A DNA stretch of 64,000 nt from a virus (IMGVR_UViG_3300043444_000221:16321-80320); one strand, 5' to 3'; numbered from the stretch's first letter, positions 25,871-50,215 are shown. Notes: generated by a model from the sequence alone, not told the origin. A program made the numbers and translations.

Positions 25871-25898
25871 AAGCCCTGGGCATGGCTTAAAACTGCCC
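25871..25898 (+). ncRNA. Post-stop H-type pseudoknot motif, copy 1
   Basis: AAGCC-CTGGGCAT-GGCTT-AAAAC-TGCCC. Confidence 0.65.
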
Positions 25899-25919
25899 AC
25901 ACTATGCTATAATAATCCT

Positions 25920-26201
25920 ATGACTCAGCATGCACTAGTAACCCTTTCAAGCTCTACAGCTACCAGGCTAACCCCTAATGGAATACATTCAGGACTAGAT
26001 ATAACTCTTCAGAATGTAGACGATGTAGCATATGTTTATATTGGAGGAGAGGGAGTTACCAGATTAAATTATGGATATCGTATTGCCCCTGGTCATGCAA
26101 TATCTTGGGAGCTTCCAGGAAATGATTCTCTTTATGCAATCACAGATACTAACCTATCCAAGCTAGCAATTTTAAAAACAAGTCTTGAGAGTGGAAGTTA
26201 A
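25920..26201 (+). CDS. Hypothetical beta-rich protein
   Basis: Leaderless after TATAAT. Confidence 0.65.
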   Translation: MTQHALVTLSSSTATRLTPNGIHSGLDITLQNVDDVAYVYIGGEGVTRLNYGYRIAPGHAISWELPGNDSLYAITDTNLSKLAILKTSLESGS

Positions 26202-26716
26202 TGTCAAGATTTACTAATCATACAGATGGAACACCAGGACCACAGGGCCCTGCTGGCGAACCTGGATACGGAGCACTTACTAGATGGTCACCAAATTTTA
26301 AGGCAACTGGACTTTCTTTTACTGGAACAGGAAGCTCTTACCCAACATACAACTCTTATTATGCTAAAAATGGTCACATAGTTAGTTTTTGGATTGAAAT
26401 TGATCTAGATACTGTTACTAATTTTGGAACTGGTCAGTACATAACAGAGTTGCCCTTTATGCCAATTGCTGGCTCAATGAATCACTTTTCTGGCTGGGCA
26501 CTCGTTGATCCAACACAAAACCCAGATCTCGCAGGGCATATTATTCTTAATGCAGACCACCTTGTAAATACAAAAGACCTTGATCTTCACTACATAAAGC
26601 AAGCAGGCGGATCAAAAACTGCTATTATGGAAGCAATGTTTACCCAAGATAATCCAGTAACTCTAACTACAGATACAACCATTTATATCAATGGAACATA
26701 TCTTACTAATGAATAG
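26201..26716 (+). CDS. Short collagen repeat plus fibre-like domain; paralog of 57902..58615
   Basis: GTPGPQGPAGEPG; shared NFGTG.Y...LPF.P. Confidence 0.65.
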   Translation: MSRFTNHTDGTPGPQGPAGEPGYGALTRWSPNFKATGLSFTGTGSSYPTYNSYYAKNGHIVSFWIEIDLDTVTNFGTGQYITELPFMPIAGSMNHFSGWALVDPTQNPDLAGHIILNADHLVNTKDLDLHYIKQAGGSKTAIMEAMFTQDNPVTLTTDTTIYINGTYLTNE

Positions 26717-26730
26717 GATATAATATAGTT

Positions 26731-27180
26731 ATGAATGAAATAATTAATACACTCAAAAGGCTACTTGCAGACAACATTGCTCTCAAGTTCAAAGCACATG
26801 GATATCATTGGAATGTAGAGGGTGATGACTTCAAACAATTCCATGATTTTTTCGGGGATATTTATGAAAGCTATGATTCTGCAACAGATACATATGCAGA
26901 ATGGCTAAGAATATTTAAAGAATACGCTCCATATAGATTGGCAGATTTCTTTGATGCCTCCTCTATTGGTGAGCCATCTATTGTGGGTGACCCACAGCCC
27001 ATGTTGGCTGACCTTTACTTATCTATTGAAAAGCACATTGCAGACTTAATTGTTGCAGGCAAAGCTGCTACTGCAGCAAATGAGTTTGGATTAGCAAACT
27101 TCTTTGCAGATCGTCAAACTATTTCTCAAAAGTTCTGCTGGCAGATTCGTGCAAGTATCGAAGCTGAGGAGATGGACTAA
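26731..27180 (+). CDS. dps: Dps/ferritin-like protein
   Basis: K.HGYHWNVEG..F...H.FF..IY, D..AE..R. Confidence 0.88.
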   Translation: MNEIINTLKRLLADNIALKFKAHGYHWNVEGDDFKQFHDFFGDIYESYDSATDTYAEWLRIFKEYAPYRLADFFDASSIGEPSIVGDPQPMLADLYLSIEKHIADLIVAGKAATAANEFGLANFFADRQTISQKFCWQIRASIEAEEMD

Positions 27181-27851
27181 TGCCATATCATGTTGGAGAA
27201 AAAGGATCTTACGGTTGTAACGGATACCCTGCACTAAAAGATGACGGAACAGTAATGGGATGTCATGACACCAAAGAACAGGCAGCAGCCCAAATTTATG
27301 CAATTAATCAGTCTGAAGGCAATATAGATAAGCAGTCCCCATGTTGGGATGGATATGTTCAGCGTGGTATGAAGCCAAAGAATGGAAAAATGGTTCCAAA
27401 CTGTGTACCTGCTGCCAAGGCTGATGACCTGTGGGAAGATGACGATGATGTTATTTATGATAATGACTCTATGTCAAAGGCAGATGGCTACTCTCCACCA
27501 GCAGGGGCTAGAGCAGCAGCTCGTAAAGCAATTAAGTTTAAGGAAGATGGCAAAGCAGGTGGTGCAGGCACAGCAGTTGGCTGGACACGTGCACGTCAGC
27601 TGGCAAATGGTGAAAGCCTATCTCTAAGTACTGTAAAGCGTATGTACTCATACTTCTCACGCCATGAAGTAGACAAAAAGGGTAAGGACTGGGCTAACCA
27701 GGCTAATCCATCTAATGGCTACATTATGTGGCTTGCCTGGGGTGGAGATGCAGGATACTCTTGGTCTCGCAGAATTGTAGAGAGCGAAAAGAATAAATCT
27801 TTGTTTGCTGACTTTGGTAAAGATTATACAAAGTCAACAAGAGTGCTATAA
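27180..27851 (+). CDS. Hypothetical phage protein
   Basis: GCH.TK..A..Q, CWDGY....MK, GT.VGW.RA.QL, WGGDAG. Confidence 0.7.
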   Translation: MPYHVGEKGSYGCNGYPALKDDGTVMGCHDTKEQAAAQIYAINQSEGNIDKQSPCWDGYVQRGMKPKNGKMVPNCVPAAKADDLWEDDDDVIYDNDSMSKADGYSPPAGARAAARKAIKFKEDGKAGGAGTAVGWTRARQLANGESLSLSTVKRMYSYFSRHEVDKKGKDWANQANPSNGYIMWLAWGGDAGYSWSRRIVESEKNKSLFADFGKDYTKSTRVL

Positions 27852-27858
27852 TAATATT

Positions 27859-27945
27859 GTCCCTCATACAGGCATCGCTCTTAGGATGGATTAGTTACCT
27901 ATTTTATGACCGTGGCCTATTGCAGGTTGATCCTGTATGGGGGAT
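27859..27945 (+). ncRNA. Putative ~85-nt structured RNA
   Basis: Begins 6 nt after TATAAT; long closing stem CCCTCATACAGG/CCTGTATGGGGG with internal hairpin. Confidence 0.45.
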
Positions 27946-28715
27946 TACTTAATTCCCAAATCACGCTGTCTTTTATCAAATGCCTCCAATGCCTTGGCAT
28001 AGTCATCTTCAAGCTTTGATGTAAGGTGAAACTTCTTGACCATCTCTTTGATTATGTAGTATTCCTCTGGCTTTTCTACTGGAAATGCATTTGCTGCACC
28101 ACTGGAAAAGTTGATATCACTCTTAGCACGTTCAATGTGGTGTGCCAAATGCTGATCAATTTGTTCCTGTGTCTTCAAAATACACTCTCCAGTGCCACCA
28201 GAAAGCCTGTAGAGGTGTGGAAGAACATTTGGCAGGTCTTCTGTTACCTGCTCAAATGTAAATGGCACTATGCGGTCTATAGCAATCATTGAGCCATAGG
28301 TATAGCCCTCCCACATCCTAGATTCCTGATACATGGACTCACGGATATACTCTTCCTTTCTTTCACGGAAGAATGCCATATTGCCATCAACAATCTCTGG
28401 TCTTCCAGCAATCGTTGAGCTTCCAAATCCATACGATGTCTTAAGTATTTGAGATGTAATGGCATCAACTGGGTCTCTAAGTACAGTAGTCATTGTTACA
28501 CCAGGCAATTCTGCACGGAATAGAAGTGGTTCATGACATAGAATAACCCAGTTATCCATCTGACTCCATTCACCTGCCACACGTGGATCTAAATGGTCAC
28601 GTAGGTTATGACCGTACATGTCTCTAATTAGATCAAAAAAGAAAAAGCCACCAGTTCTTGGCATGGTGTTAAGAATAATTTTATACACGAGGTTCCCTTC
28701 TAGTGTGTGGATCAT
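27945..28715 (-). CDS. Sulfotransferase-like P-loop protein
   Basis: PRTGG (5'PSB-like) and LRDPVDAITS (3'PB-like). Confidence 0.55.
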   Translation of the reverse strand: MIHTLEGNLVYKIILNTMPRTGGFFFFDLIRDMYGHNLRDHLDPRVAGEWSQMDNWVILCHEPLLFRAELPGVTMTTVLRDPVDAITSQILKTSYGFGSSTIAGRPEIVDGNMAFFRERKEEYIRESMYQESRMWEGYTYGSMIAIDRIVPFTFEQVTEDLPNVLPHLYRLSGGTGECILKTQEQIDQHLAHHIERAKSDINFSSGAANAFPVEKPEEYYIIKEMVKKFHLTSKLEDDYAKALEAFDKRQRDLGIK

Positions 28716-29775
28716 TAATGATGCTATCTGTATCTGTTATGCCAGTTAGTTGAGTTATAGTTTTACTAAAAATCTCATCAGTTATAATTATAGCATTATC
28801 CATATCTATCTGTGGGTCTCTGGTAATTTCCAGTGTAAATGGGTTATATCCGATAAAGTCTATAAAATCCTCTACAGATCTTTCCCTGAAGGCACCAAAA
28901 TCTTTATTATGCCTTATTTCTGGGTCAGTAAATATCTTTTTAAACTTATCATATGACTCTAAATTTGCTGCCCTAATTCTAGCCTGTTGCTCTGGCCTAT
29001 CCCACCTAATATGTCTAACAAACTTATCACTTCTTTCACTTGGATTCCAGTAGTTAAAGTTATTGGTATATAGGTGTATTGGGGACACTACTTCATATCC
29101 TGCAGTCCAAGCACGAAGCATAGAAAGCTGTTGCTCAAAGCACTGTGCCATATTTTTCGCAAATGGGACTTCCCTGATATAGTCTGAATATGAAAATACC
29201 ATATTTCCGTTATAAAAGTTTTCTTTGATCATTAGGTTGTTTGGTTTTGCAACCACCAAGCCATTAAGAGCGATTGGCTCTGGGAAGTCTAGAGTCTTTC
29301 CAATTACCTCCCACTCACCCATGTCTGGGTATGAAGTTAGTGGGTCAGCAATCAGCTCATCCTTCCAGCTATCAAAATAAATAGTTTGAGAATTTATTAT
29401 GCTCTTGCCAAAAACTATGTTGGCTATCAAAAGCTCTGCCTCAAGCATTACGTCCCAATTTTTTCTAAACTTTGTGTGACAGTCTACTTGCATATAGTAA
29501 GCTTCGTCAGTCATAAACTCATCAATGATCATCTGCTTAATGTCGCATAAATAGTCTGGTGCATCATCTCCATGCACCTTCTTAATGTTGATATTAGCAT
29601 CTGGAAGTTTATCTTGAATAGAGTCAACCATCCAGTCATCTTCTGGGTAGCCTTGGAACAACACACCAAATACAAGTCTATCTTTATTATAGGCTTGATC
29701 ATATGCTGACTTTATTGTTTCATAAACAAATGGATCTCTCCAGCTTGGCATTGATACAAAAATCTTATTAGTCAT
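28681..29775 (-). CDS. GT60-like glycosyltransferase
   Basis: KIFVSMPSWRDP, YYMQVDCHTKF.KNWD, EQ....LRAWTAGYE. Confidence 0.75.
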   Translation of the reverse strand: MTNKIFVSMPSWRDPFVYETIKSAYDQAYNKDRLVFGVLFQGYPEDDWMVDSIQDKLPDANINIKKVHGDDAPDYLCDIKQMIIDEFMTDEAYYMQVDCHTKFRKNWDVMLEAELLIANIVFGKSIINSQTIYFDSWKDELIADPLTSYPDMGEWEVIGKTLDFPEPIALNGLVVAKPNNLMIKENFYNGNMVFSYSDYIREVPFAKNMAQCFEQQLSMLRAWTAGYEVVSPIHLYTNNFNYWNPSERSDKFVRHIRWDRPEQQARIRAANLESYDKFKKIFTDPEIRHNKDFGAFRERSVEDFIDFIGYNPFTLEITRDPQIDMDNAIIITDEIFSKTITQLTGITDTDSIINDPHTRREPRV

Positions 29776-30010
29776 TATTGTTTCTTTCATATTCACGTTG
29801 CTTGTGGCAATTTGCACAGACAACATCACACTTCTTTACCTCTTTCCAGGCTGCATCTTTTCCATATTTTCGAAGAACACGATAAACTAAGTCTATCTTC
29901 TTTGCTCCTGGACGATGGTCAAACTCAAGTATGTAGTGAGGGTAGTGGACCTTGCAATCCTTGCACCCCATCTTCTCTTTATACGCCTGAAATTGAGAGT
30001 ATTGATTCAT
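29768..30010 (-). CDS. Small HNH-type protein
   Basis: CKDC, LEFDH, KCDVVCANCH. Confidence 0.75.
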   Translation of the reverse strand: MNQYSQFQAYKEKMGCKDCKVHYPHYILEFDHRPGAKKIDLVYRVLRKYGKDAAWKEVKKCDVVCANCHKQREYERNNND

Positions 30011-30046
30011 TACATATATTATAGCAAATAGAGGTATAATATTATT

Positions 30047-30271
30047 ATGAATCTTGAAGCTTTCGACTATGATTTAGACGAAAGGCATGCCCTGCTTTTA
30101 CAAAGAATTGATGACATTACATCAGAGATCTATTCTATTGGGGCATATGAAGAAAGAAAAGCCATCTTTGACCACATGCGTAAACTTATTCAAGATAAAG
30201 ATGTTGCTGGCGATATGATTGCTGTAGAAGTTCTTTGCTGGACACTTGACCAGCTTGCCTCAGAAGGCTAA
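30047..30271 (+). CDS. Hypothetical protein
   Basis: Leaderless after TATAAT. Confidence 0.6.
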   Translation: MNLEAFDYDLDERHALLLQRIDDITSEIYSIGAYEERKAIFDHMRKLIQDKDVAGDMIAVEVLCWTLDQLASEG

Positions 30272-30315
30272 ATCTGGTATAATTAAATTCTTAATCATAA
30301 GAAAAGAGAAACTTA

Positions 30316-31209
30316 GTGATACTAGTAACAGGTGGTGCAGGCTTCGTTGGCTCCCACCTAGTTGATAAGTTAATTGATCTTGGTTATCATGTTCGTGTAA
30401 TTGATGATGAATCTGCAACAGAAAACAAAAAGTTCTATTGGAATCCGAAGGCAGAAAATTACAAGCTTGATATTTTAGACTATGAATCTACACGAAAACT
30501 ATATGATAATGTTAAAATAGTTTATCATTTTGCAGCTAGATCAAGAATTCAGCCATCAGTTATAAATCCAGGCAATACTCTCAATACAAATGTTTTAGGA
30601 ACATTCAATGTTCTAAAATGTGCATCAGAGGCTGGGGTAGATAGACTAATATTTTCTTCATCGTCATCTGTTTATGGAAATAACCCTCCACCAAACATAG
30701 AGACTCAAAGCCCAGATTGTCTCACAGTGTATTCTGCAAGCAAGTTGGTTGGTGAAAACCTTTGTTTTAGCTTCAATATGATGTCTAAAATTAAGACACT
30801 ATCCCTGAGATTTTTTAATGTCTATGGAGATAGACAGCCAACGGTTGGGGAATATGCAACAGTGATTGGTAAGTTTATTGAACAGAAAAATGCTGGCAAT
30901 CCATTAACAATTGTTGGTGATGGAGAACAGCTGAGAAGCTTTACAAATATATCTGACATTGTAGAGGCATGTCTACTAGCTGGAATGCTTGATGTTGAGG
31001 GTCATAATTTTGGAAAGTCATACAATGTTGGTTTTGAAAAAGAGTACAAAATAAAAGATATTGCAGGTATGATATCTGATAATTACATTCACATACCAAA
31101 AAGGGTTGGTGAATCTAATGCGACGATAGCAGACTCTTCTAGGTTCAAACATGTATTCGGCTGGAAACCTACAGTATATCTAGAAGACTGGATACGAAAT
31201 AATGTCTAA
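30316..31209 (+). CDS. NAD-dependent sugar epimerase/dehydratase
   Basis: TGGAGFVG, SSSSVYG, YSASK, RFFNVYG. Confidence 0.9.
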   Translation: MILVTGGAGFVGSHLVDKLIDLGYHVRVIDDESATENKKFYWNPKAENYKLDILDYESTRKLYDNVKIVYHFAARSRIQPSVINPGNTLNTNVLGTFNVLKCASEAGVDRLIFSSSSSVYGNNPPPNIETQSPDCLTVYSASKLVGENLCFSFNMMSKIKTLSLRFFNVYGDRQPTVGEYATVIGKFIEQKNAGNPLTIVGDGEQLRSFTNISDIVEACLLAGMLDVEGHNFGKSYNVGFEKEYKIKDIAGMISDNYIHIPKRVGESNATIADSSRFKHVFGWKPTVYLEDWIRNNV

Positions 31210-31954
31210 CATTCTTATCATTGGTAGGGGAAATGTGGGGCTAGCAACTGAGCGTAGCATGCCACTGTTAAATGCAGACTTTCATGATCCATACAAAGGT
31301 TTTATCGCAAACAATCCAAATACATATGAGTATGCAATAGTCTGCGTTGACACACTTCAGTCTGGACCAGATGATTACAAAGACTTAGACAGTGTGATTG
31401 AGTATCTAAACAATTACTCTGGCACTGTGGTAATTAGAAGCACAATATCTCCAGATAAAGCATTGGAAATTAACTCTAAGCTTTCTGGCCCTCTTGTTAT
31501 GTTTCCTGAATTTATGGACCATAAGGATTTTAAAAATGGTACTGACTCATCTTCCAGAATTGTGTTAGGTGGTAGTCACGATACAACAAAAGACTTCTTT
31601 AAAACAATATCTAATTATGGCTATGATACAAATAAAGAAAAATTCTTTGTATCTATTGAAGAGGCATGCATAATTAAACTTTCTTCTAATGCAGCACTTG
31701 CTACCAAAGTTATTTTGTTTAACTCTATATATAAAATTTGTCAGGGGTATGGGGTATCATATGATGAAGTCAGAAAAGCAATTGGCATAGATAGTAGAAT
31801 TGGTATTGGTCACACTCTTGCTCCAAGTCCAGATGATGGAATGCTTGGCTTTGGTGGTCATTGCTTACCCAAAGACATAAAAGCTATTGCAAAAATGGAC
31901 AAATTGGGACTTTTTGAACATATAGAAAAAATTAACCACGATCTTGGCAGGTAG
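31202..31954 (+). CDS. UDP-glucose/GDP-mannose dehydrogenase family
   Basis: G.G.VG, RST..P, PEF, K...N..LA.K, GFGGHCLPKD. Confidence 0.85.
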   Translation: MSNILIIGRGNVGLATERSMPLLNADFHDPYKGFIANNPNTYEYAIVCVDTLQSGPDDYKDLDSVIEYLNNYSGTVVIRSTISPDKALEINSKLSGPLVMFPEFMDHKDFKNGTDSSSRIVLGGSHDTTKDFFKTISNYGYDTNKEKFFVSIEEACIIKLSSNAALATKVILFNSIYKICQGYGVSYDEVRKAIGIDSRIGIGHTLAPSPDDGMLGFGGHCLPKDIKAIAKMDKLGLFEHIEKINHDLGR

Positions 31955-32064
31955 TCCAAATTGTGGTACAATATATAAACTTTGTTACAAAAACGTAATA
32001 ATTCAAACAAGAAATCGTCTAATACAATTGTATAATTGTATTTATACAACTAAAGGAGATATTT

Positions 32065-32286
32065 ATGACTACGGTTTATTCAAAACCAGCTTGTGTCCAG
32101 TGTGACATGACAAAGAAAATGCTAGATAAGAATGGTATTGAATATACTGTGATAGATATCACAGAGGATGTCCAGGCCTATGACAAGATTGTTTCTATGG
32201 GATTCATGTCTGTGCCTGTTGTTATTTCTGGCGACCAGGCATGGGCAGGTTTTCAGCCAGACAAAATTAATGCTCTTGCAGCTTGA
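32065..32286 (+). CDS. nrdH: Glutaredoxin-like NrdH
   Basis: YSKPACVQC..TK, PVV, W.GF.PDKI. Confidence 0.92.
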   Translation: MTTVYSKPACVQCDMTKKMLDKNGIEYTVIDITEDVQAYDKIVSMGFMSVPVVISGDQAWAGFQPDKINALAA

Positions 32287-32337
32287 CTTATAAAGCCATC
32301 GTTGGTATAATTTATAACATAGAGAAATGGGTATGCT

Positions 32338-32499
32338 ATGAATTGGCATTTAATTTGGGAAATGCTTTCTGATCCAAACCATATTATTGTAGACTTTTTT
32401 TGGAATACAATATATGAGTTGACAGTTGCAGTTATTTCATATAAAGTTATAGTTAAGAAATTGGAAAAGAGATTTAAAAATAATGACAGACAAAATTAA
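32338..32499 (+). CDS. Small membrane protein (not in track)
   Basis: MNWHLIWEMLSDPNHIIVDFFWN...; resembles 33476..33643. Confidence 0.55.
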   Translation: MNWHLIWEMLSDPNHIIVDFFWNTIYELTVAVISYKVIVKKLEKRFKNNDRQN

Positions 32500-33842: not shown

Positions 33843-33848
33843 ATTCTT

Positions 33849-33925
33849 GGGGCAGTAGTTCAGAAGGTTAGAGCGTCACTCTTATAAGGTGAAAGTCGTG
33901 GGTTCAAGTCCCACCTGCCCTACCA
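33849..33925 (+). tRNA. tRNA-Ile(TAT)
   Basis: Cloverleaf, loop CT-TAT-AA, A discriminator, encoded CCA. Confidence 0.9.
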
Positions 33926-33926
33926 T

Positions 33927-34000
<74 letters not shown>

Positions 34001-34011
34001 CAAATGATATA

Positions 34012-34578
34012 ATGAATAATATGGACGATGTAAAAGTAATAAATAATTTCATCACAGAAGATGATGCACAAACAATAATTGATTTTATTGAAGATAAGCT
34101 ATCTCTATTTGTCTATAATAAAGATCGTAAGCGATACATGCTTAGGTTTGGCTATGACGAAGAGTTGCCAGAACAAGCTATCCACTCTATGTTTATAGTA
34201 AAGCCAATCAAAGATTTGCTAATACAAATATTTGACAAAACAAATGATGTGGTTGGCAAAGACCTATTCCTAACATCTTGGTTCATATCAAAGCAAATTC
34301 CTGGTGCCAAGTTGCTACCACACAAAGACGGAACAAGGGGCATGAACGATCATCTTGAATATACAGCCATGCTATATCTAAATAATCTAGATAATAATGG
34401 AACAATATCATTCCCAGATTTAAATCTTGACATTACTCCACAACTTGGAGACTTGGTAGTCTTTAGGTCGCTTGATCATGAGCATATGGTTTCTGATGTA
34501 ACTCAAGATAGATACTCACTTCCAATGTGGTTTACAAAAGATGAAAGCCTAAAGTTTAATGGACAAAATATTTATTAA
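34012..34578 (+). CDS. 2OG-Fe(II) oxygenase, prolyl-4-hydroxylase-like
   Basis: HKD, TAMLYLN, G.I.F, H.V..V...RY. Confidence 0.82.
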   Translation: MNNMDDVKVINNFITEDDAQTIIDFIEDKLSLFVYNKDRKRYMLRFGYDEELPEQAIHSMFIVKPIKDLLIQIFDKTNDVVGKDLFLTSWFISKQIPGAKLLPHKDGTRGMNDHLEYTAMLYLNNLDNNGTISFPDLNLDITPQLGDLVVFRSLDHEHMVSDVTQDRYSLPMWFTKDESLKFNGQNIY

Positions 34579-35497
34579 CATTGCAGCGTATCGTGATCCA
34601 CTTTTGGTTAGGACACTTACGCAGGCTTATCAGAAGGCTGACCATCCAGAAAATTTAGTGTTTGCACTAGCAATGCAGTATGAGCCAGAGATATATCCAG
34701 ACCTATCCTTCATTCCAAAAGATCAAATACGTATACTGAATTATGACTTGGCTAGCAGGCCTGGCATCACTAGAATTAGATATGAGCTAAGTAGGTCAGC
34801 ATACATAGACGAGGATTATTTCCTAATGATTGACTCTCACATGAAGTTTCAAGATGGTTGGGACACATGGCTTAAGGTGTCACTAAATAACCTTGGTCCT
34901 AAAACAGTCATAACTGGTCTTGGAGAAATTCATAATGATCAGCTTAGATTAAAGACTTGTGAGATTATTCAGGGGCACATGGACTTAGTCTTTCAGGGTA
35001 AAGAATACTATGTTCCAATGGACTATGAAAATGCAGGACGATTCTATAAAGCACCATATATATCTTGTGGGTTTATGTTTACATATGGCTCTTTTGTAAA
35101 TGATGTAGGATTTGATGAATATAGTCAATTTGATTCAGAAGAGCCCTATCTAAGTTGGAGAACCTTTATGTCTGGTTGGGACATATATCAAACATCCTAT
35201 TGGCCAATTACACATTCTCCAGATAATTATTATGACGATGCTTGGGGTGGCTTTGAAAATAGAAAATTCCTTCGTGATGGGCTTGAGAGCGTATTTAGAA
35301 GCAACCTAGTAATGTTAAAATCATTAGCATATGTATACAATGACTATTCAATATACGCAATTAAGAATTCCCCCAGAAAGCCAGTGGAATGGTTCTTGGA
35401 GTGTGGATATACTATTAGTGATTATAAAAAAATTCTTTTACATTTTGACAAAATGATACGCAATAACGTATCAGGAGATGATATAATAATTCTATGA
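34559..35497 (+). CDS. GT60-like glycosyltransferase
   Basis: KIFINIAAYRDP, A.HPENL, EDYFLMIDSHMKF..GWD, EE...S.R.F..GWDIY. Confidence 0.8.
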   Translation: MDKIFINIAAYRDPLLVRTLTQAYQKADHPENLVFALAMQYEPEIYPDLSFIPKDQIRILNYDLASRPGITRIRYELSRSAYIDEDYFLMIDSHMKFQDGWDTWLKVSLNNLGPKTVITGLGEIHNDQLRLKTCEIIQGHMDLVFQGKEYYVPMDYENAGRFYKAPYISCGFMFTYGSFVNDVGFDEYSQFDSEEPYLSWRTFMSGWDIYQTSYWPITHSPDNYYDDAWGGFENRKFLRDGLESVFRSNLVMLKSLAYVYNDYSIYAIKNSPRKPVEWFLECGYTISDYKKILLHFDKMIRNNVSGDDIIIL

Positions 35498-42563: not shown

Positions 42564-42574
42564 TACCCCCAAAT

Positions 42575-42650: not shown

Positions 42651-42724
42651 ATACACATAGTTATCCACAGAGTTATACACAATTTGATGTCTGATTTTGA
42701 TAGTTATCCACAGGTTTATCCACA
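42649..42724 (+). promoter_or_regulatory. Five co-oriented DnaA boxes
   Basis: TTAT(C/A)CACA at 42649, 42661, 42673, 42704, 42716. Confidence 0.85.
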
Positions 42725-43283: not shown

Positions 43284-43415
43284 AATATTATTATACACCA
43301 ATTTGACAATTTGACAATGATCTGCTATGATCTGGGAAAATTTTTGATCCTTCGTAATCTGGGAATTTTTTAGGTCCTTCGTAAAGGAGCTATTTGGATC
43401 GACGGCGAATTTGGG

Positions 43416-43441
43416 TAAAAGAAAAGCCCCCGTAGGGGCTA
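43416..43441 (-). terminator. Terminator closing the - strand block
   Basis: Reverse complement AGCCCC-TACG-GGGGCT-TTTCTTTT. Confidence 0.75.
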
Positions 43442-43566
43442 ATCTCAAATAGGACAATCAGAATAGGGGAAGTATTCCTTTTCCTCGCAGGTGCAGAATC
43501 CAAACTCTTCTACCTGTGTAACGTGTGTCAAGTCTGCCAAATCAGACCAGTAATATACTTTATCCA

Positions 43567-46500
43567 TTATGCTCCTACCTTCCATTCCATAGTATCAAAT
43601 ATGGTATCCATTGTCAAGTGCAAATTGCAGTCACATTCTCCACCATTCATATTCTCCATGAATTCAAAATGAGATAAATTGTCTTCATATATCTTGGTTA
43701 CTAGTTCATCTACTGTATATGGTGTGCTCATGAATTTGCCATTACCCATTCTTCATCTACCTCGTCGTCATAGCAGCCACAGCATTCAACACAGATAATC
43801 TCATTATCCTTGCTGCAGTTTGGACACAGATATTGGTCCATTGTCATCTCAGGGTTTTCACAGAACTCACAGATGGTTGCTGCAAGTTGTTCAATAGTAT
43901 AATCTCTAATGTGGTCTGCCTTGAACATATGTTCCATACTCCTTGTCTGCCGTCCATTTTGCAATCTCTTCTGAATCCATATCAGCGATATCAATCATTA
44001 GATTATTAGTGAACATCCAGTCCCTTACCCATTCGTATAGGTGTTCAGTTCCATACTCTAGGGTAAAGGCAGGGGTATCAGTATTGAGAGCATCCCATAC
44101 GATATCCTGTGTACGAATATATAGTTCTTCATCTTGGTAGAACTGGTCAATGATGTCCCACACCCATAGCCACACAAGGCTAGGGAAATGGGTCTCATTT
44201 AGTTTAGTTAGTTTATCTAGAATCTCGTCTAGTTCTTGTCTTGGGGTTGTCATAGTATCCATTCTACTACTTGTCAAGGATTTCGTCAAGTGTTGTAAAG
44301 CCTGTGTCTTGTACCTCTACCCCAGCCAGCAGCAAATCAAATGTCTCATTGATGAATGCCTTTGCCTGGTCTGACTTAGCCTCCACTACCCCACTATCAA
44401 TTAGATAGGCAAGTGGTAGTCCAAGATCGTTATAGACAATAAAGTCTTCAAAGATCTCATCGTCACGATAGTTCAACCAAATGTCAGCAAGTATGCTGCA
44501 CTTATCTTGAAACTCTGTAGTTGATTGTGGTGAATCCATTGTTATCTCTTTCCTCTTGAGCAGACTCTGTCATTATCTCTAATCTGTGAAATGTGGTGCT
44601 AGGTCTCATTCGTGCTAGATAAATACCAACACGCTCAATGTCTAGTCTTAGGTCACAAATCATATTAGAAATCTTGACAGCGACTTTTTCTTCTTCTGTC
44701 ATTCCTCTATGTATCATTGTCACCTCACTCGTTCATTATAGCAAAAATATGGGGAGAGGGCAAGTAGTGAAAGTAGGAAATGTCTACTCACCCCCTCCCT
44801 GGTGGTACAGCCGTCAACCCCTTAACAGCTGTACTATCCTAGGAGCTAAGCTCAACTAGGAAGCTTTGTCATACCAGACCATGGGCTCTCCAGATGGATT
44901 AAGCTCACGTACATCTACAAGACTGTTTAGCCAATCAAGAATAGATTGTGGGCATGCCTTAGACTCTTCTAGGAATGCATCTACACCTGTCCAGAAATCA
45001 GTCCCATACTCATCTATAGGGAAGTCAGGAGCAATGGCCCTAGTCTCTGCTAGCGTAAGCTTTCTGATATCACCTTCATATGTACGTGAACCAAGATGGT
45101 CATTAATATAAAGATATACCTGCATGGTTAGTAGCTCGTCCCAAGTGGTACCCAGCTCTTCATCCCATTGCTCTGCATAGAAGATGTTAAGGTCATAGGC
45201 CTTGGTCTCTTCGTAGGTAAACTTACTTGACGATGTCTGCATTGTCTTCTCCATAAATCTGCTTGAGGTCTTCTACGGTATCGCAAGGAATGTCAATTGA
45301 ACCTTCTTCACACTCTTCGCAGTTAGGGTCATAGTCACCGTCTTCTGTGGTGTCATAGCAGTCACATTGGCGGTAGGTCCAAGTAGGAATCTCTGTCCAT
45401 TCGTCTTCCCATGGATTCTCAGTAATGTAGTAATGAATGCGATTTACAAAATGCCAACCTGCCACAATGTAAGTGCCCTCGTCACCATCTACTTCAGTCC
45501 AGATGTGCTTAGGGTCTTGAGCCTTGACAAAATCTACCTCTTCACCATAAGTTTCAAAATGAATAAGGCTCTCGTCAGGATACTTACTAATAGTATTTTT
45601 GATTGGCTTGAATGTTTCTTCCCACCCACCATAGGTATAAAACTTAGACATCTAGGGTTACCTTCTTTCCATACTCTCTGATTACGTCTTCGAACTTATC
45701 TCCCTCAAGTTCTCCAACTTCTTCCATAATAGCATCAAACTCACCCTGTGTCAAGTTCTTGGTATCTAATACATATAGGGGAAAGTTGCTCTGGTGCTCC
45801 CACCAGTCTCCATTAACATTAGCAATATAAACAGTCATTAGCAGTCTCCGTTACTAGGAATCTTGTCTTCTGGTACACCCATCATAGATAGGATAGCTTG
45901 GCTTCTTCCAATGATGCCCTCAAGGAAATCACCATATGGGTCATTGATATCCAAAGCCTCTCGTTCTGGAATCAGTTCAGTGATATCAGCAATAAGATAA
46001 TCAATAATCTCCTGATTACTCGCCATCTTCATCCTCCTCATCAGACTCAAACTCTGCTACCTCAATGCTGTGGACAATGCCTGTGTGCGACCAGTCCTCA
46101 TACTCCCAGCCTTGCTTTTCTGCTTCCTCAACGCTATCAGCTTCAACCTCATAGCAATACTCAACAGTTACAGTTACTTCATAAGAACCCATTTATTTAT
46201 CCTAACTTTCTCTTAGAAATGGAAGTCTACAGGAACAAGATACCACTTTTTGGAACCCTTGTCAAGTTCTTCCAGCATATATTTCGGGGTAGTGGTGTAG
46301 TTATCCAAATCATAGAAATATGAATCTTGATTCCAATAACCATTTAGCATAGAGGCAGCAGACCTAACATAGTATGCTGTCATATCAAATCTATCCTCAT
46401 CTGATAGATTGCCATTGTTTTCAATAAAGGTATCAACAAGACTACTAAACTTATCTAGTTCTAGTCTTTCTCTGATACGCCCCATTTCTTCGCTACGAGC

Positions 46501-46749
46501 AGATAGAGAGCCTTGAAGAGTTTCCATAAACTTATCAGGATTATCAGCAAGTGAAACCACATCGTTGTGATTATCTTGGTATTGATTATTAGGATTACTA
46601 TTCCAACGCCCACCACCAACGACATACCAATCAGACCAGCCACCTAGTCCCTCACTTTCGGAATACATAGATTCAAACTTGTCTTTTACTTTATTGAAAG
46701 CCTCTTCTGCAGAATCAGCCTTTATTGCTATTTGTTGTAATACGTGCAT
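43567..46749 (-). CDS. Operon of small acidic hypothetical proteins (43567, 43728, 43906, 44267, 44502, 44856, 45223, 45644, 45838, 46016..46192, 46213..46749)
   Basis: Overlapping start/stop ORFs behind the promoter at 46780-46808. Confidence 0.7.
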
Positions 46750-46985
46750 TTGGGGTTGCCTTTCTACTTTGATACCTCAATTTTACACGCTGCCACTGAC
46801 ATTGTCAAATTGGGAAAAGAATCAGCGTGTCGTAATTACTTTTATATAGTTATTTATATAAGCTCAGATCCAGAATTTGGGAAATTTGTTACACAAACGT
46901 AATACAAAATACTTGACTAATAGTATAAAGTGTGGTCGACCACATTGCGATCAGTTTGTCAAGCTCAACACGATCCCTGGAGGGA

Positions 46986-47013
46986 GGGCAGTTTTACGTG
47001 TTGCCCAGCACGT
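46986..47013 (-). ncRNA. Post-stop pseudoknot, copy 2
   Basis: ACGTG-CTGGGCAA-CACGT-AAAAC-TGCCC. Confidence 0.65.
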
Positions 47014-47017
47014 TTTA

Positions 47018-48031
47018 TTATGCGTTAGCCATTACGCCTTGCACAACTTTTAGCAGGCGATTCTTCTCTGCATTTATCATTGGGTCAAACCCACTTGCAC
47101 TTGCAAGAATTGATTCGTTAGAACCGCCACGAGCAGAACGATACCAATCCAAACGCTCAGTAAGTGCATTGAACGCACCCCAAGCAGTGCCAGCAATCAT
47201 GCCATTGTAAGTGCCAGTGTAAATGTCATTGATAACATCTACCTTGTTTTCCCACTTCTTGACAGCACCCTTAGTGTCCTTGTCAGGCTTAGGGTATGCA
47301 GACAGAATGATGTCATTGAACTGTTGTGCAGTTACTTCTTGCTGAATCATGGCGTGTGCCATCTTGTCGAATTCGTCCATGTATTTGTTAGCAAGACCAA
47401 GAGTCTCACGAGCAACCGCAATCTTACCCTCTGCAGTCTGAGTGTGACGAATCTTGAAACTTTGCTTAGGGCCTTTGCCACGAGAACCTAGAGCAAGGTT
47501 TAGAGTGTTAGCACATACAACACGAACAGGTGTGATAGACGCTTGAATAGCAATCGAACCGTCGTGTGATGTATTGATAAGAAGATAAGTCTTTACCTTA
47601 TCTGAAACGCCGTTAGGGTCAAGAACGGTTTCACGCTCAAGAGCAAGAGAACCGAAGACAACACGTCCGCCCTTGATAGAGCCAGCAGTCTCCCAACGTC
47701 CGCCACCGTCCAAGATGTTGTCACCGAATGAGAACAAATCTTCATTCTGCAAAACCTTGTAACGCTCACCAACAACGCCAAGAACGTCATTCTGTGAATT
47801 GTCAAATGGGTTAGTGCGAGTAACGAAGAAATAGTTCTTGTCACTTGCGAATGTGTCAGGAATCGAAACGTCCTCAAGACGAACATTCCAGTTGTCAAGG
47901 TGTGCCTTCTGCAACATTTCTGCAGTGGTTACTTCTTCAGTGAAGACCTCACCAAGACCATGCCAAGCAGGCTCACGAAGAGAAGCAAAAGCAGTCTCGC
48001 CGTTTGCACCTTGTTCTAGTAGATGTGCCAT
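47018..48031 (-). CDS. DUF932 family phage/plasmid-like protein
   Basis: AWHGLG, VG.RY...QN, ETAGS..GG, YLL...SHDGS, TPVRVVCANTL, GTAWG..NA..E..D. Confidence 0.85.
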   Translation of the reverse strand: MAHLLEQGANGETAFASLREPAWHGLGEVFTEEVTTAEMLQKAHLDNWNVRLEDVSIPDTFASDKNYFFVTRTNPFDNSQNDVLGVVGERYKVLQNEDLFSFGDNILDGGGRWETAGSIKGGRVVFGSLALERETVLDPNGVSDKVKTYLLINTSHDGSIAIQASITPVRVVCANTLNLALGSRGKGPKQSFKIRHTQTAEGKIAVARETLGLANKYMDEFDKMAHAMIQQEVTAQQFNDIILSAYPKPDKDTKGAVKKWENKVDVINDIYTGTYNGMIAGTAWGAFNALTERLDWYRSARGGSNESILASASGFDPMINAEKNRLLKVVQGVMANA

Positions 48032-48210
48032 GTGTGTATCCTTTCGTAGGGGTTTTTCTGATAAGACTATTATGGCAGATACCTCTGACAATGTCAAGTT
48101 ATATTGGGGAAAATGTTTGGGCGTGTCGTAACGTTTTCGTAACAAAGTTATCCACAAAGTTATCCACAGGGGGTCGACACATTTTCGATCAGATGTCAAA
48201 TATGGGGAAT

Positions 48211-48239
48211 GAGCAGTTTACATGGACGTGCTCAGGTCC
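48211..48239 (-). ncRNA. Post-stop pseudoknot, copy 3
   Basis: GGAC-CTGAGCAC-GTCC-ATGTAAAC-TGCTC. Confidence 0.65.
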
Positions 48240-48284
48240 CTTAGCATGCAGGCAGAAAGAAAGGATAAAAGCCTGCAGTACCTC

Positions 48285-49191
48285 TTACTCTACGTTAACC
48301 CATTTCATTGCGGTACGTAGAAGATTGTCATAGTCCCCAGACATAGACTCATTCATATACTGTTCGACCTCGTCAGCTGAGGCTCCAGCTTTTCGAAGGG
48401 CCTTAGATACAGCTCCCATGATAGCGAATGCATTACCGTCAGTGCCAGTAAGTTTTACAGTTACAGTCTCATATTTACTCATTAGATTATCTCCGTTAGG
48501 GTTTCGTTGTATTCTACATCATCAGGGTTAGAGAAGTCAAATCCCGAATCCTTATAGTCTTCCTCATCCTCGTATCCTTGAAGGACAAAGAACTTAGCCA
48601 TTGCTTCATCTTCACTAGTGGCCATAACGCTGTATGATTCACCTGTTAGGATTGTGTATTCCTGCTTTTCCATTACGCCATTACCTCTTCCTTTGAGAAC
48701 TCATTCAAGTATAGTTCAGGGGTAGGGAGTTTGTCAAGCGAGAACACAACCTTTTTACCACCATACTGTGAGATAAATAGTCTAGTTTGAAAATCAATTG
48801 TATAGACACCCTCGCACATCAAATCATCTTCAATAAAGTCAATCTGATTAGATAGGGGCACACGACCAGTTGAATAGGTTACCACCTTAAGAATGTCTGA
48901 ACCTGTATTTCTAGTTAGACTAGGATACATTACAGCAAACTTATCGCTGTTATCCATTGTCATCATTCCGTCAGGGGTAACGAATGGCTTGTACATCTCT
49001 TCCAACTCTGATTCAGTAGCGAAGTAGCATTTGAATAGTGCCTTCTCCAACTGTTCTACAACATTGTAGCCAGATAGGAATGATAGAATGTTTAGGCCCT
49101 GACCATCTGGATAGTGGTCCCATTGTCCATACTGTGCAACAACAGTCTGGCCGTTTGAATCAATTACCTGTGTAATACCTCTTGTACCCAT
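48285..49191 (-). CDS. Three small hypothetical genes (48285..48482, 48482..48673, 48673..49191)
   Basis: G.DGNAF.IMG...SGDYD.LL; MGTR...QY..WD.YP.GQG; AAGGA RBS. Confidence 0.75.
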
Positions 49192-49384
49192 TTCTTTCCT
49201 TCTTTCTCTTGATACCTACAATTATAGTATGAGGGTCTGACATTTGTCAAGTTATTCCTGGCGTGTCGTAAGCTTTTTCTTAAATGTTATCAATTTGTTA
49301 CATTTGGTCGACCCCATTTTTCACCAGATGTCAAGCTTGGTTCTGATCTTTTCCGAAGATCATTTTGACATTGGTGAAAGTGGT

Positions 49385-49412
49385 GAGCAGTTTCAACACT
49401 TGCTCAGGTGTT
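49385..49412 (-). ncRNA. Post-stop pseudoknot, copy 4
   Basis: AACAC-CTGAGCAA-GTGTT-GAAAC-TGCTC. Confidence 0.65.
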
Positions 49413-49417
49413 TCCCG

Positions 49418-49597
49418 TTACTTCCCAACAAGGAAGAAACTTGATGCTGACTTTCGCTTCTGCTTTACGGGAATGTTCTTGGTCTGATTGGTAGCACCAA
49501 TAAACTTTCCATCTGCCGTGCGAACAACAGCCTTGTAGATTTCACCAGACTTGGTGTTCCACTTCTCAGTTGCGATTACAATCTTCTTTCGTGCCAT
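49418..49597 (-). CDS. Small basic protein (not in track)
   Basis: MARKKIVIATEKWNTKSGEIYKAVVRTADGKFIGATNQT...; AAAGGA RBS. Confidence 0.7.
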   Translation of the reverse strand: MARKKIVIATEKWNTKSGEIYKAVVRTADGKFIGATNQTKNIPVKQKRKSASSFFLVGK

Positions 49598-49632
49598 TTC
49601 TTTTTCCTTTTCGTTGTTGGGTTTATTAGGGT

Positions 49633-49666
49633 GAGCAGTTTAGCCTTGACTTACTCAGGTCAGGGT
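49633..49666 (-). ncRNA. Post-stop pseudoknot, copy 5
   Basis: CCTGAC-CTGAGTAA-GTCAAGG-CTAAAC-TGCTC. Confidence 0.6.
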
Positions 49667-49671
49667 TCTCG

Positions 49672-50118
49672 TTAGAGAAGTTCCATTACGGAGTTGTAAG
49701 TGGAAGCATTTACTTCCTCTTGCTGTGTCATCTTTAGAACCTTTAGGTTCTTCTTGAGCAAGTCCAACTTGGTGGTGTAGTCCCTACCAAAGTAAGTCTT
49801 CTCATTTGGTCGCTGTGGTTCTTCAGGTCGCTTAGGGAAACCAAGTGCCTCAGTATCAAACTCAACAGACACGCCATTGTAGCGGTAGTTGCCTGTTACA
49901 CGAACAAGTGAGCCGTTCTCAGTTCCAATGTTGCTTGGGTCAGATAGTGCCTTGATAGCGTGAGCAATAACATCTTTCTCATACTGCTTTACATCAAGTT
50001 CATACTGCTTGCGAAGTCCAGAGTAGTTCTCAATGTCCTGCTCTACCTTTGCGATTTGTGCCTCAACCTCTGCGATTAGTGAAGCGGTTGGGATTTTGAC
50101 GGATAGCGATTTTGCCAT
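49672..50118 (-). CDS. Hypothetical protein
   Basis: Own promoter and RBS. Confidence 0.75.
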   Translation of the reverse strand: MAKSLSVKIPTASLIAEVEAQIAKVEQDIENYSGLRKQYELDVKQYEKDVIAHAIKALSDPSNIGTENGSLVRVTGNYRYNGVSVEFDTEALGFPKRPEEPQRPNEKTYFGRDYTTKLDLLKKNLKVLKMTQQEEVNASTYNSVMELL

Positions 50119-50189
50119 TTTTTCTTCCTTCTTTCTTTTGGGTTGTATCTATTATGCCATTGGGGTCTGACATTTTACACCTTGCGGTG

Positions 50190-50215
50190 GGGTAGTTTAG
50201 AGTGATACCCAGCAC
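50190..50215 (-). ncRNA. Post-stop pseudoknot, copy 6
   Basis: GTG-CTGGGTAT-CAC-TCTAAAC-TACCC. Confidence 0.55.

Follow-up and report, generated by a model that had tools for sequence, protein, structure and literature searches.

The window, a stretch of 64,000 nucleotides of viral DNA, contains six copies of a compact H-type RNA pseudoknot. All six lie on the sense strand, and the fold is confirmed to be under selection for RNA structure. The knot is linked to the gene upstream of it rather than to the downstream one, and it adjoins sites of 3'-end formation. We put at roughly 40% the probability that it is a nuclease-resistant cap protecting the upstream cistron at its 3' end. An exonuclease block, one of the functions originally listed as possible, remains the foremost candidate; we infer both the stalling of such an enzyme and the side from which it would approach.

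Each knot is 26-30 bases long. The first stem (S1) has 3-5 bp and is closed by a C-G pair, the first loop (L1) consists of the two bases CU, and the second stem (S2) is a 5-bp helix of the form GRGYA/URCYC. The fold is completed by a single-base junction and by a last loop (L3) that is rich in A and ends in AAAC. By analogy with luteovirus-type knots, this last loop should occupy the minor groove of S1.

A covariance model (R1), whose alignment combines 110 outside copies with window copies 1, 2, 5 and 6, retrieves exactly six copies from the window, with scores of 23.6-45.2 bits and E values of 3e-6 to 8e-14; the next match scores 14 bits. These are the same six copies, at the same positions and on the same strand, as in the original prediction. 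Copies 3 and 4, which are absent from the R1 alignment, still score 27.3 and 23.6 bits. In the 80-kb contig, pattern matches number six, versus none in the reversed control.

Both helices covary within the window, in the related contig L052 and among 235 non-redundant copies taken from contigs of viral metagenomes. Over 112 distinct sequences, pairing holds in 92.9% of cells, versus 72.5% after shuffling and about 30-42% when the partners are slid. The closing pair of S1 is C-G in 101 cases and G-C in 10, and its second pair is U-A in 64 and A-U in 43. S2 is paired in 99.8% of cells, and at its R-Y pair (A-U 66, G-C 45) the pairing is largely imposed by the two scan patterns. Its Y-R pair, which the search pattern does not force, is C-G in 67, U-G in 28 and U-A in 16, with a single mismatch. 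Orthologous copies in the window and L052 differ by compensatory changes. Since such changes occur in both helices, and since the opposite strand would have A.C in place of the U.G wobbles, it is the sense-strand RNA structure that is under selection, as had been claimed.

Copy 1 (25871..25898, plus strand, 45.2 bits) pairs AAGCC (25871-25875) with GGCTT (25884-25888) in S1 and GGGCA (25878-25882) with TGCCC (25894-25898) in S2; L1 is CT and L3 is AAAAC. It begins 4 nt past the TAA at 25864-25866 (ORF 25399-25866) and ends 21 nt ahead of the ATG of ORF 25920-26201. The other copies are on the minus strand. Copy 2 (46986..47013, 42.3 bits; S1 ACGTG/CACGT, S2 GGGCA/TGCCC) starts 4 nt beyond the TAA (47020-47018) of a DUF932 gene at 47018-48199, and its ortholog in L052 has ACATG/CATGT as S1. 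Immediately 3' of it lies the hairpin hp2 (46974..46985, minus strand; TCCC-TCCA-GGGA), which is TCACC-TCT-GGTGA in L052, a compensatory change. Copy 3 (48211..48239, 27.3 bits; S1 GGAC/GTCC, S2 GAGCA/TGCTC) has a longer L3, ATGTAAAC, and shows no difference in L052. The stop of its upstream ORF (48285-48482, phrog_1933) is 45 nt away, and a hairpin, TGCAGGC...GCCTGCA (48277-48247), lies between the two. Copy 4 (49633..49662, 23.6 bits; S1 TGAC/GTCA, L3 AGGCTAAAC) is 9 nt past the TAA of ORF 49672-50118 and ends 35 nt ahead of the ATG of ORF 49418-49597; its S2, GAGTA/TGCTC, contains one U.G pair and is GAGCA/TGCTC in L052. Copy 5 (49385..49412, 43.2 bits; S1 AACAC/GTGTT, S2 GAGCA/TGCTC) starts 5 nt past the TAA of that same 59-aa ORF, 49418-49597, and its L052 ortholog carries the stem TAAC/GTTG. 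Copy 6 (50190..50215, 31.2 bits; S1 GTG/CAC, S2 GGGTA/TACCC) starts 7 nt beyond the TAA (50225-50223) of ORF 50223-50447. Its orthologs have CTG/CAG or GAC/GTC stems, and its hp2 (50178..50189, minus strand; CACC-GCAA-GGTG, with a GNRA loop) is also kept in two other contigs, L114 and L058.

It was thus correctly foreseen that S1 would differ in every copy and yet pair, and that CUG and AAAC would be invariant in all six. The S2 pairs listed for copies 1 and 2, 3 and 5, and 6 are as described; the U.G pair of copy 4 had gone unmentioned. Gaps from the stop had been given as about 4-8 nt with one of about 45 nt, which fits the values of 4, 4, 5, 7 and 45 nt (last stop base to first paired base); the gap of 9 nt lies outside that range.

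The motif extends well beyond this genome: it forms a very large family, found in phages, in mobile elements within bacterial genomes and in at least one RNA virus, and spans Saccharibacteria to that virus. A covariance model with searches of Rfam and of phages, the check proposed originally, yields the motif in many phages and no match to the six copies at gathering score in Rfam 15, known xrRNA models included. With E values up to 10, the region 46900-50300 gives four chance-level Rfam matches, none on a knot's own strand; one of them is ES003 (E 1.6), antisense to copy 4. It had not been recognised as a named family, which holds for Rfam, although it has a close named relative in coremin (see below).

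Thirteen bases of the knot are invariant or nearly so (C, CUG, G, A, G, AAACU, C, C), more than pairing needs. This, together with a size and topology resembling preQ1-I, might point to a small-ligand site of the mini-riboswitch kind, to binding of a conserved protein or to a small ribozyme that cleaves itself. We hold this to be very improbable. The Rfam search is negative to E 10 with the preQ1 and ribozyme models included, and an expression platform is absent. The genes before and after the motif are unrelated, so that no regulon logic emerges, and the taxonomic range of the knot argues against a lineage-specific protein. Indeed, we found no support for self-cleavage, ligand sensing, readthrough or antitermination. 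The preQ1-I riboswitch (RF00522) is likewise an H-type pseudoknot of about 30 nt with an A-rich tail ending in AAAC-U. The knot differs from it in having an L2 of 1 nt versus about 6, in lacking a link to queuosine genes and in lying 3' of genes. Identity with preQ1-I was rejected, its covariance model giving no match.

Among 184 family copies with an upstream ORF, all but four start S1 at least 4 nt past the stop, with a mode at 5-6 nt. The real placement constraint is this 4-nt floor, which is the edge of the terminating ribosome's footprint. Five window copies indeed follow a stop by 4-9 nt, as predicted; the position just after the stop is in part a packing effect, since tight spacing to the next start codon is about as frequent. 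The latter also counts against a role as a 3' cap. The floor places S1 at about +11 from the P site, where the ribosomal helicase is located. The knot, at the mRNA channel mouth of a terminating ribosome, might therefore stop post-termination or readthrough ribosomes from sliding into the spacer, a promoter region or a tRNA, and so uncouple cistrons. The ribosome is the sole 5'-to-3' machine common to the bacterial and eukaryotic hosts of the motif, and coremin not only stalls Xrn1 but also halts ribosomes that are scanning and promotes frameshifting (PMC10520033, PMC10321173). A ribosome barrier nevertheless appears unlikely. In half of the family the knot is over 12 nt away from a stop, in many cases by 30-170 nt; a slippery site and an in-frame extension are absent, and a double stop precedes copy 2. 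Moreover, such a barrier would leave the association with tRNAs and U-runs, and the host range, unexplained.

The link to the upstream gene is best seen with DUF932. Nineteen DUF932 genes, 26-93% identical to that of the window, each have a knot 4-20 nt past the stop. The next ORF is at a distance of 58-265 nt and falls into 11 unrelated clusters among 16. Because the knot is constant behind the DUF932 genes while the downstream genes are unrelated, it belongs to the upstream gene. In the family as a whole there is no dominant downstream gene family (56 families, with at most three members apiece). The median spacer is 109 nt with a knot versus 9 nt without.

Several observations place the knot beside sites where 3' ends form. 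Among first-of-cluster tRNAs in knot loci, 20 of 85 have a knot ending 0-15 nt before the tRNA 5' end, and knots often precede a tRNA by 2-13 nt. In Arthrobacter phage Amigo, the knot follows the SSB stop and is separated from a tRNA-Gly by about 2 nt (from BLAST match coordinates). A U-rich 9-mer immediately follows the knot in 24 of 234 copies, versus 3 at +40 nt and 5 at +80 nt. This 5- to 8-fold enrichment, in about 10% of the family, would suit a nascent knot that terminates or pauses transcription, with S2 serving as the terminator hairpin that halts RNA polymerase at the gene end. So would the early region of the window, where promoters are many and terminator-like sites do not exceed the level of shuffled sequence (6 versus 4.1 expected), none of the six being placed to end a minus-strand gene. 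We consider termination or pausing quite unlikely. The U-run is missing from 90% of the family and from all six window copies, and contigs from a run labelled metatranscriptomic continue through copies 4 and 6. To our knowledge, there is no pseudoknot-type terminator for bacterial RNA polymerase. Identity with an intrinsic terminator was rejected for the window copies, a terminator scan of the window having detected no sense-strand terminator at any of them.

A promoter-like element, TTGACA-N17-TCGACC, lies on the minus strand 23 nt 3' of copy 2 (46934..46962), and the same element recurs behind copies 3 (48199-48172) and 5 (49334-49306). With it the next transcription unit begins directly behind the knot, and no terminator was found between the two at these three copies.

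As a 3' cap, the knot would be transcribed as the tail of the upstream message and, lying just beyond the terminating ribosome's footprint, would never be melted by translation. Long early transcripts would either stop at a U-run or be cleaved beyond the knot, whether by RNase P acting on a neighbouring tRNA or by an endonuclease acting within the spacer. The 3'-to-5' exonucleases would then trim back from the new end and stall at the knot, so that the upstream cistron could persist as a stable message with no need for a classical terminator hairpin. Bacteria and phages have other 3' stabilising stem-loops, namely intercistronic hairpins, REP elements and terminator hairpins. The knot resembles them in its end-of-cistron location and in the proposed stalling of 3'-to-5' exonucleases with segment-specific mRNA stability. 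They are, however, long, simple, GC-rich hairpins without conserved sequence, whereas the knot has 26-30 nt with about 13 conserved bases kept across phyla. Other points weigh against the cap. The isolated helices are weak (each -0.5 to -6 kcal/mol), and knots are not enriched ahead of convergent genes (21 convergent versus 125 tandem arrangements). A further point against it is the position in three Firmicute phages, 37-170 nt past the upstream stop and directly before the scaffold and capsid genes. Because 3'-to-5' exonucleases are universal, the cap also leaves unexplained the bias of the phage hosts towards RNase J-bearing lineages, with no gamma-proteobacterial phage among the matches. 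Finally, coremin, the closest characterised relative, blocks a 5'-to-3' enzyme.

Coremin (xrRNA-C) occurs in RNA viruses of plants and fungi (beny-, cucumo-, umbra-, hypo- and chrysoviruses) and has a Watson-Crick variant, xrRNA-WCC (Dilweg, Olsthoorn et al.; PMC6546385, PMC10520033, PMC10321173). Judged by sequence, the phage knot looks like a close relative of both. Coremin, with the formula GUC-YGAD-GAC-GUUAAACUAC, matches it in architecture and sequence: a short first hairpin, often GUC/GAC or GAC/GUC (S1 is G-W-C/G-W-C in most of 173 knot copies), C as the first loop base, and a loop that pairs just past a spacer ending in UAAAC. A tested coremin heptaloop, CGAGUAA, nearly equals the phage loop CUGAGUAA, and coremin is likewise intergenic and beside stop codons. 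The RNA-virus contig L164 bridges the two, combining a phage-type loop with the coremin spacer. Its knot, GAC-CUGAGUAU-GUC-GUUAAACUAC-UC, lies 12 nt past the RdRp stop, and its tail is identical to the Xrn1-resistant motif. The spacer GUUAAACUAC is exact in L164 and in none of the six window copies, the family consensus being NN-AAAC-U-R-C-Y-C, of which AAAC-U-x-C is invariant and the remainder variable. There are also differences. The coremin loop is YGAD or YGNNAD, with Y first and G second, whereas the knot loop is C-U-G-R-G-Y-A-N, with U second; L1 is CU in the knot versus one base followed by G. S2 is a full, covarying 5-bp helix in the knot, and non-canonical or of 3 bp in coremin. Like xrRNA-WCC, the knot has a covarying antiparallel Watson-Crick S2 between loop and spacer; xrRNA-WCC, however, requires a single G as L1 and a 3-bp S2. 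The knot resides in bacterial DNA phages and mobile elements, and bacteria lack Xrn1.

The likeness to the Xrn1-stalling element, and the L164 knot behind its RdRp stop, raise the possibility of a bacterial xrRNA counterpart, which would stall a 5'-to-3' enzyme arriving from the upstream cistron, chiefly RNase J, and protect the downstream gene or tRNA as a firebreak; 5'-end-dependent RNase E scanning is possibly a further target. Flaviviral xrRNAs reportedly block bacterial RNase J1 as well. The host range is in keeping with such a role: cultured carriers are phages of Firmicutes, Actinobacteria, cyanobacteria and Rhodobacterales and crAss-like phages (Bacteroidota), among them Arthrobacter phage Amigo, Bacillus phage Page, Staphylococcus phage StB12 and roseophage SIO1. 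Matches occur in 20 of 350 Bacillota genomes versus 7 of 350 from Gammaproteobacteria, the latter mostly of atypical length, and RNase J is present in four of five carrier genomes tested. The enzyme is absent from a Polynucleobacter bin with two knot copies, which counts against such a role, although the contig in question may be phage DNA that was binned wrongly. In 86% of cases the genes on either side of the knot run in the same direction, and in three Firmicute phages (StB12, Lj771 and Page) the knot is 37-170 nt past the upstream stop, just before the scaffold and capsid genes. Still, an RNase J block, the main rival of the cap, seems rather doubtful to us. The knot tracks the upstream gene and not the downstream one, the window promoters between knot and next gene would yield knot-free transcripts, and the U-run behind the knot is given no role. 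Furthermore, coremin requires hp2 for Xrn1 resistance, and this hairpin accompanies only two of the six knots in the window and 33 of 226 in the family.

Tentatively, we propose that bacterial DNA phages and mobile elements may share the coremin-type mini-pseudoknot of eukaryotic RNA viruses as a protein-free stop for RNA-degrading enzymes, with RNase J, and perhaps 3' exonucleases, in place of Xrn1. It would divide polycistronic transcripts into messages that are each stable on their own, and would set the ends of mRNAs without terminators. If so, it would be the first exoribonuclease-resistant RNA class of the bacterial world and a module common to several domains, through descent or convergence.

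The luteovirus-type frameshift knots of BWYV, PEMV-1 and ScYLV are of the same size and topology as the phage knot. They lie within an ORF, 5-9 nt past a slippery heptamer, and their target is the elongating ribosome. A luteoviral -1 frameshift knot was rejected because all six copies are past stops, copy 2 following TAATAA, with no slippery site or overlapping frame. These compact knots (discussed in PMC10321173) share with the phage knot an S1 of about 5 bp, a two-base L1 starting with C, a short GC-rich S2 and a junction of one base. The last loop is A-rich in both, being AACAAA in the luteovirus type and NNAAAC in the phage knot.

The knot motif, an H-type RNA pseudoknot of 26-30 bases, is real, strongly selected, widespread and uncatalogued. 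Its six copies in the window lie at 25871-25898 on the plus strand (copy 1) and, on the minus strand, at 47013-46986 (copy 2), 48239-48211 (copy 3), 49662-49633 (copy 4), 49412-49385 (copy 5) and 50215-50190 (copy 6). The plan is a stem 1 of 3-5 bp, a CU loop, the 5' half of stem 2 (GRGYA) and one junction base, followed by the 3' half of stem 1, 1-5 variable bases, AAAC and the 3' half of stem 2 (URCYC). Site reading and a regular-expression scan reproduced the coordinates, stems and invariant blocks of the original prediction, whose only slip lies in the stem-2 pairing of copy 4, GAGUA/UGCUC with one U.G wobble. All six copies are indeed on the coding strand of the preceding gene. The distances between stop codon and stem 1, put at 4-8 nt and about 45 nt, measure 4, 4, 5, 7, 9 and 45 nt. 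The last belongs to copy 3, which stands so far from its stop because a 7-bp hairpin (TGCAGGC-N17-GCCTGCA, 48277-48247, minus strand) intervenes between the stop of the ORF at 48285-48482 and the knot; this hairpin is kept in L052, a relative of the window's contig. A small ORF with a TAA 1 nt before copy 3 was rejected, since it would violate the 4-nt floor described below. No seventh copy is present in the whole 80-kb viral contig, where a reversed control pattern gave 0 matches. R1, a covariance model built from 110 outside copies plus copies 1, 2, 5 and 6, gives the six copies 23.6-45.2 bits and the next-best window match 14 bits. Copies 3 and 4, left out of its alignment, still score 27.3 and 23.6 bits, respectively.

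The proposed selection on RNA structure is borne out by covariation in both helices, by the asymmetry of U.G pairs and by the orthologs in L052. A search of IMG/VR with two patterns gave at least 306 matches; counts from it refer to the matches listed and are lower bounds. An in-register stem 1 of at least 3 bp is found in 270 of the listed 306, chance being roughly one in six. Among the non-redundant copies in the matches listed, stem 1 has 3-5 bp in 217 of 235 (the remainder up to 7 bp) and the junction is a single base in 215 of 235. The base preceding CUG is C in 156 of the 173 equal-length copies among the matches listed and becomes G exactly where its partner goes from G to C. In an alignment of 112 distinct sequences, 92.9% of the paired cells are complementary, versus 72.5% after shuffling and 30-42% with slid partners, and double changes are present at all five stem-1 pairs. 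The Y-R pair of stem 2, which the search patterns left unforced, is C-G in 67 of these 112 sequences, U-G in 28, U-A in 16 and mismatched in 1. Read on the opposite strand, the frequent U.G pairs would turn into A.C, so the selected molecule is the sense-strand RNA. A DNA-level hairpin or protein site was rejected because U.G wobble is tolerated on one strand alone.

L052 holds orthologs of five of the window copies. Stem 1 changes from ACGUG/CACGU to ACAUG/CAUGU in copy 2, as does the hairpin that follows it (UCCC/GGGA to UCACC/GGUGA), and from ACAC/GUGU to UAAC/GUUG in copy 5; orthologs of copy 6 in other contigs have CUG/CAG or GAC/GUC stems. Single helices are weak (-0.5 to -6 kcal/mol each), indicating that the fold must depend on both helices together with tertiary contacts. 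A C+ triple and an A-minor triplex are predicted in it. That this fold serves as a ligand site, protein site or ribozyme is the least probable of the roles considered, below both the 3'-end and the exonuclease models discussed later.

Placement relative to genes was assessed on the 184 copies, among the matches listed, that follow an ORF of 50 codons or more. In all but four of them stem 1 starts at least 4 nt past the stop, with a sharp mode at 5-6 nt; counted as far as the C of CUG, these values become 8 nt for the floor and 9-10 nt for the mode. Location just after stop codons thus stands as to floor and mode, but not as anchoring to the stop alone, since copies stand close to the next start about as often: among the matches listed, 101 are within 40 nt of the start codon that follows and 117 within 12 nt of the stop. 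The tight spacing is partly a matter of compaction. Spacers that hold a knot are long (median 109 nt versus 9 nt). By crude gene calls, knots lie between tandem genes in 125 cases versus 21 between convergent ones, and convergent pairs are not enriched. When the stop codon occupies the A site, stem 1 would sit around +11 relative to the P site, at the mRNA channel entrance; a terminating ribosome would therefore contact the knot without needing to unwind it. A role as a ribosome barrier is unlikely; it ranks above the ligand-site reading but below the 3'-end and exonuclease models.

Among the upstream genes, DUF932 dominates (18 of 148), followed by Hsp20, capsid, SSB and RecT, while the downstream genes fall into 56 families of at most three members each. 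Among 19 DUF932 genes 26-93% identical to that of the window, in which copy 2 is one such case, the knot lies 4-20 nt after the stop in all 19. The next ORF at these loci is 58-265 nt away and forms 11 clusters among 16. It follows that the 3' end of DUF932 keeps its knot across deep divergence while the neighbour is replaced. Streptomyces phage Jay2Jay, which has the best DUF932 homolog, carries no knot copy. At knot loci, the knot ends 0-15 nt before the 5' end (the RNase P site) of 20 out of 85 first-of-cluster tRNAs; in Arthrobacter phage Amigo, the SSB stop is followed by the knot and, after about 2 nt, by tRNA-Gly. A U-rich 9-mer directly follows the knot in 24 of 234 copies, versus 3 and 5 at control offsets. 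The adjacency of tRNAs and U-runs points to RNA 3'-end formation directly behind the knot.

Next-unit promoters also lie close by. The promoter-like element TTGACA-N16/17-TCGACC is conserved within about 12-51 nt 3' of copies 2, 3 and 5, at 46962-46934, 48199-48172 and 49334-49306 (minus strand). It recurs at 53972-53945 and 54653-54626 (minus) and 50607-50634 (plus), with a partial version at 50176-50164 (minus). The six-copy element has a palindromic core, GGTCGACC/TGTCGACC, and resembles an early promoter or an operator specific to the phage. Strong sigma-70-type promoters follow behind these elements as well. On the minus strand of 45700-51450, 26 sigma-70-type promoters are found versus 12.7 expected, several matching 11-12 of 12 positions (for example, the perfect one at 49250-49221). 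The region is an early-gene array made up of numerous short transcription units. Terminator-like sites in this region are not above shuffled sequence (6 found, 4.1 expected). A function of the knot itself as terminator or pause signal seems quite improbable, less likely than the 3'-end and exonuclease models. The sole expression run, X1 (source METATRANSCRIPTOMIC), is flagged 'probably DNA', consists of contigs from one sample that leave the region partly uncovered, and was given no weight. Its contigs span copies 4 and 6, and one stops at 49407, within copy 5, the next starting at 49204, just past the perfect promoter at 49250-49221.

Our preferred reading, held tentatively at a probability of roughly 0.4, is that the knot acts as a putative 3' cap for the upstream cistron. 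It is favoured because the link to the upstream gene and the adjacency to tRNA 5' ends, U-runs and next-unit promoters are left unexplained by the main rival, in which the knot would stall the 5'-to-3' enzyme RNase J as a firebreak. That rival, possible but less probable, draws on the likeness of the knot to an Xrn1-resistant RNA, on the host range of the carriers and on three Firmicute phages in which the knot precedes the genes for scaffold and capsid. The two models are compatible, as enzymes arriving from both sides could be stalled by a rigid knot.

The likeness is to coremin (xrRNA-C), found in plant and fungal RNA viruses. Coremin consists of GUC-CGAA-GAC-GUUAAACUAC and a second hairpin; loops of 6-8 bases are functional if they conform to YG..AD, the heptaloop CGAGUAA is Xrn1-resistant, and a Watson-Crick variant has a stem 2 of 3 bp (PMC6546385, PMC10520033, PMC10321173). 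It also stalls scanning ribosomes and promotes frameshifting (PMC10520033, PMC10321173). The phage knot is a close variant. It departs from coremin in three defining traits: in the second loop base, which is G in coremin only, in having an L1 of two bases rather than one, and in usually lacking the second hairpin. Two IMG/VR matches are 4.6-4.8 kb contigs with RNA-dependent RNA polymerase (RdRp) genes, picorna-like and tombus-like, with the motif at the RdRp stop, before the next ORF. In the first (L164, IMGVR_UViG_3300037737_000478), the knot GAC-CUGAGUAU-GUC-GUUAAACUAC-UC, at 2082-2108 on the minus strand, lies 12 nt past the RdRp stop in the spacer ahead of a 602-aa ORF and joins a phage-type loop to the exact coremin spacer. 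The motif of the second (L189, IMGVR_UViG_3300030593_000001; 3353-3378, plus strand) overlaps the RdRp stop and is possibly due to chance, as its stem 1 has just 3 bp and its stem 2 contains a C.A mismatch. A match to AAACUGCUC in a tombusvirus preprint proved to be an unrelated 3' end, and the class 3 plant-virus xrRNAs (PMC12397905) are different from the knot. Rfam 15 has no family at the knots (gathering scan of the whole window, E-value scan of the knot cluster), megablast of the knot cluster against named phages gave no match, and a literature search found no description of the knot in phages or bacteria. The knot is a mini-pseudoknot of the coremin type, carried by DNA phages and by mobile elements of bacteria.

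Short BLAST queries, matching in intergenic DNA, located it in named phages. Carriers include Arthrobacter phage Amigo and relatives and Microbacterium phage Count among Actinobacteria phages; Bacillus megaterium phages Page and Pony; Staphylococcus phage StB12; Lactobacillus phages Lj771, KC5a and phig1e; Moorella phage MTATph1; Christensenellales and Acutalibacteraceae phages; roseophage SIO1, Lentibacter phages ICBM1-3 and Paracoccus phage ParKuw1; cyanophages S-RIM4, S-EIVl and ACG-2014j; and crAss-like cr7_1 and cr124_1. The window's phage is probably an actinophage, because, among named phages, those of Streptomyces, Arthrobacter and Microbacterium supply the best matches to its DUF932 and NrdE proteins. 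Among bacterial genomes, the knot is common in Saccharibacteria, Aminicenantes, Calothrix and Lacticaseibacillus, where it follows mobile-element genes such as ArdA, DUF3768, DUF2958 and DUF7249, the first three typical of conjugative or mobile elements. Large bacterial contigs with the knot include three from Saccharimonadales (L255, L305, L357) and one from Calothrix (L265) with three copies inside 1.3 kb; in Saccharibacteria it lies 3' of a conserved ORF of about 113-124 codons.

Carriers are seen in RNase J-bearing lineages, and none of the named ones is a gamma-proteobacterial phage, although these make up a large share of the collection searched. Matches were found in 20 of 350 sampled Bacillota genomes (reversed control, 1), mostly of the canonical 23-24 nt length, and in 7 of 350 gammaproteobacterial genomes (control, 2), mostly of atypical length. 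RNase J passes its curated threshold in four of the five carrier genomes examined (Alistipes, Microsaccharimonas, Calothrix and Lacticaseibacillus) and is missing from the fifth, a Polynucleobacter bin; E. coli lacks the enzyme. With such a host range, the RNase J question is open to a direct test. Should the knot block exonucleases of bacteria, phages would follow a new and very common rule in expressing their genes, whereby a 28-base element sets message ends and lifetimes without protein, and the xrRNA concept would reach from eukaryotic RNA viruses into bacteria. The knot would then aid the annotation of thousands of phage genomes, showing where genes end, where transcription units meet and where tRNA clusters begin, and would serve synthetic biology as a portable RNA stabiliser of minimal size in Gram-positive hosts and others that have RNase J.

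Other elements of the window deserve mention. The DnaA-box consensus TGTGGATAA has nine exact matches versus about 0.5 expected by chance, with several tandem pairs 12 nt apart, at 48168-48148, 42724-42661, 40804-40796 and 56894-56886 (minus) and 51984-52004 (plus); the pair behind knot 3 is conserved in L052. A manA RNA motif (RF01745, 64.8 bits) lies at 9515-9697 (plus) between tRNA-Asn and tRNA-Asp of a four-tRNA cluster (9436-10092), and a second tRNA pair is at 33849-34001. The window also encodes a class Ib-type ribonucleotide reductase (NrdE-like with an RNR_N domain, plus small chain), a carbamoyltransferase, a C-methyltransferase, a GDP-mannose dehydratase-like enzyme and two GlcNAc-type glycosyltransferases (989-4064, 15357-22012 and 34559-35497, plus; 28681-29829, minus), together a putative sugar-modification set.
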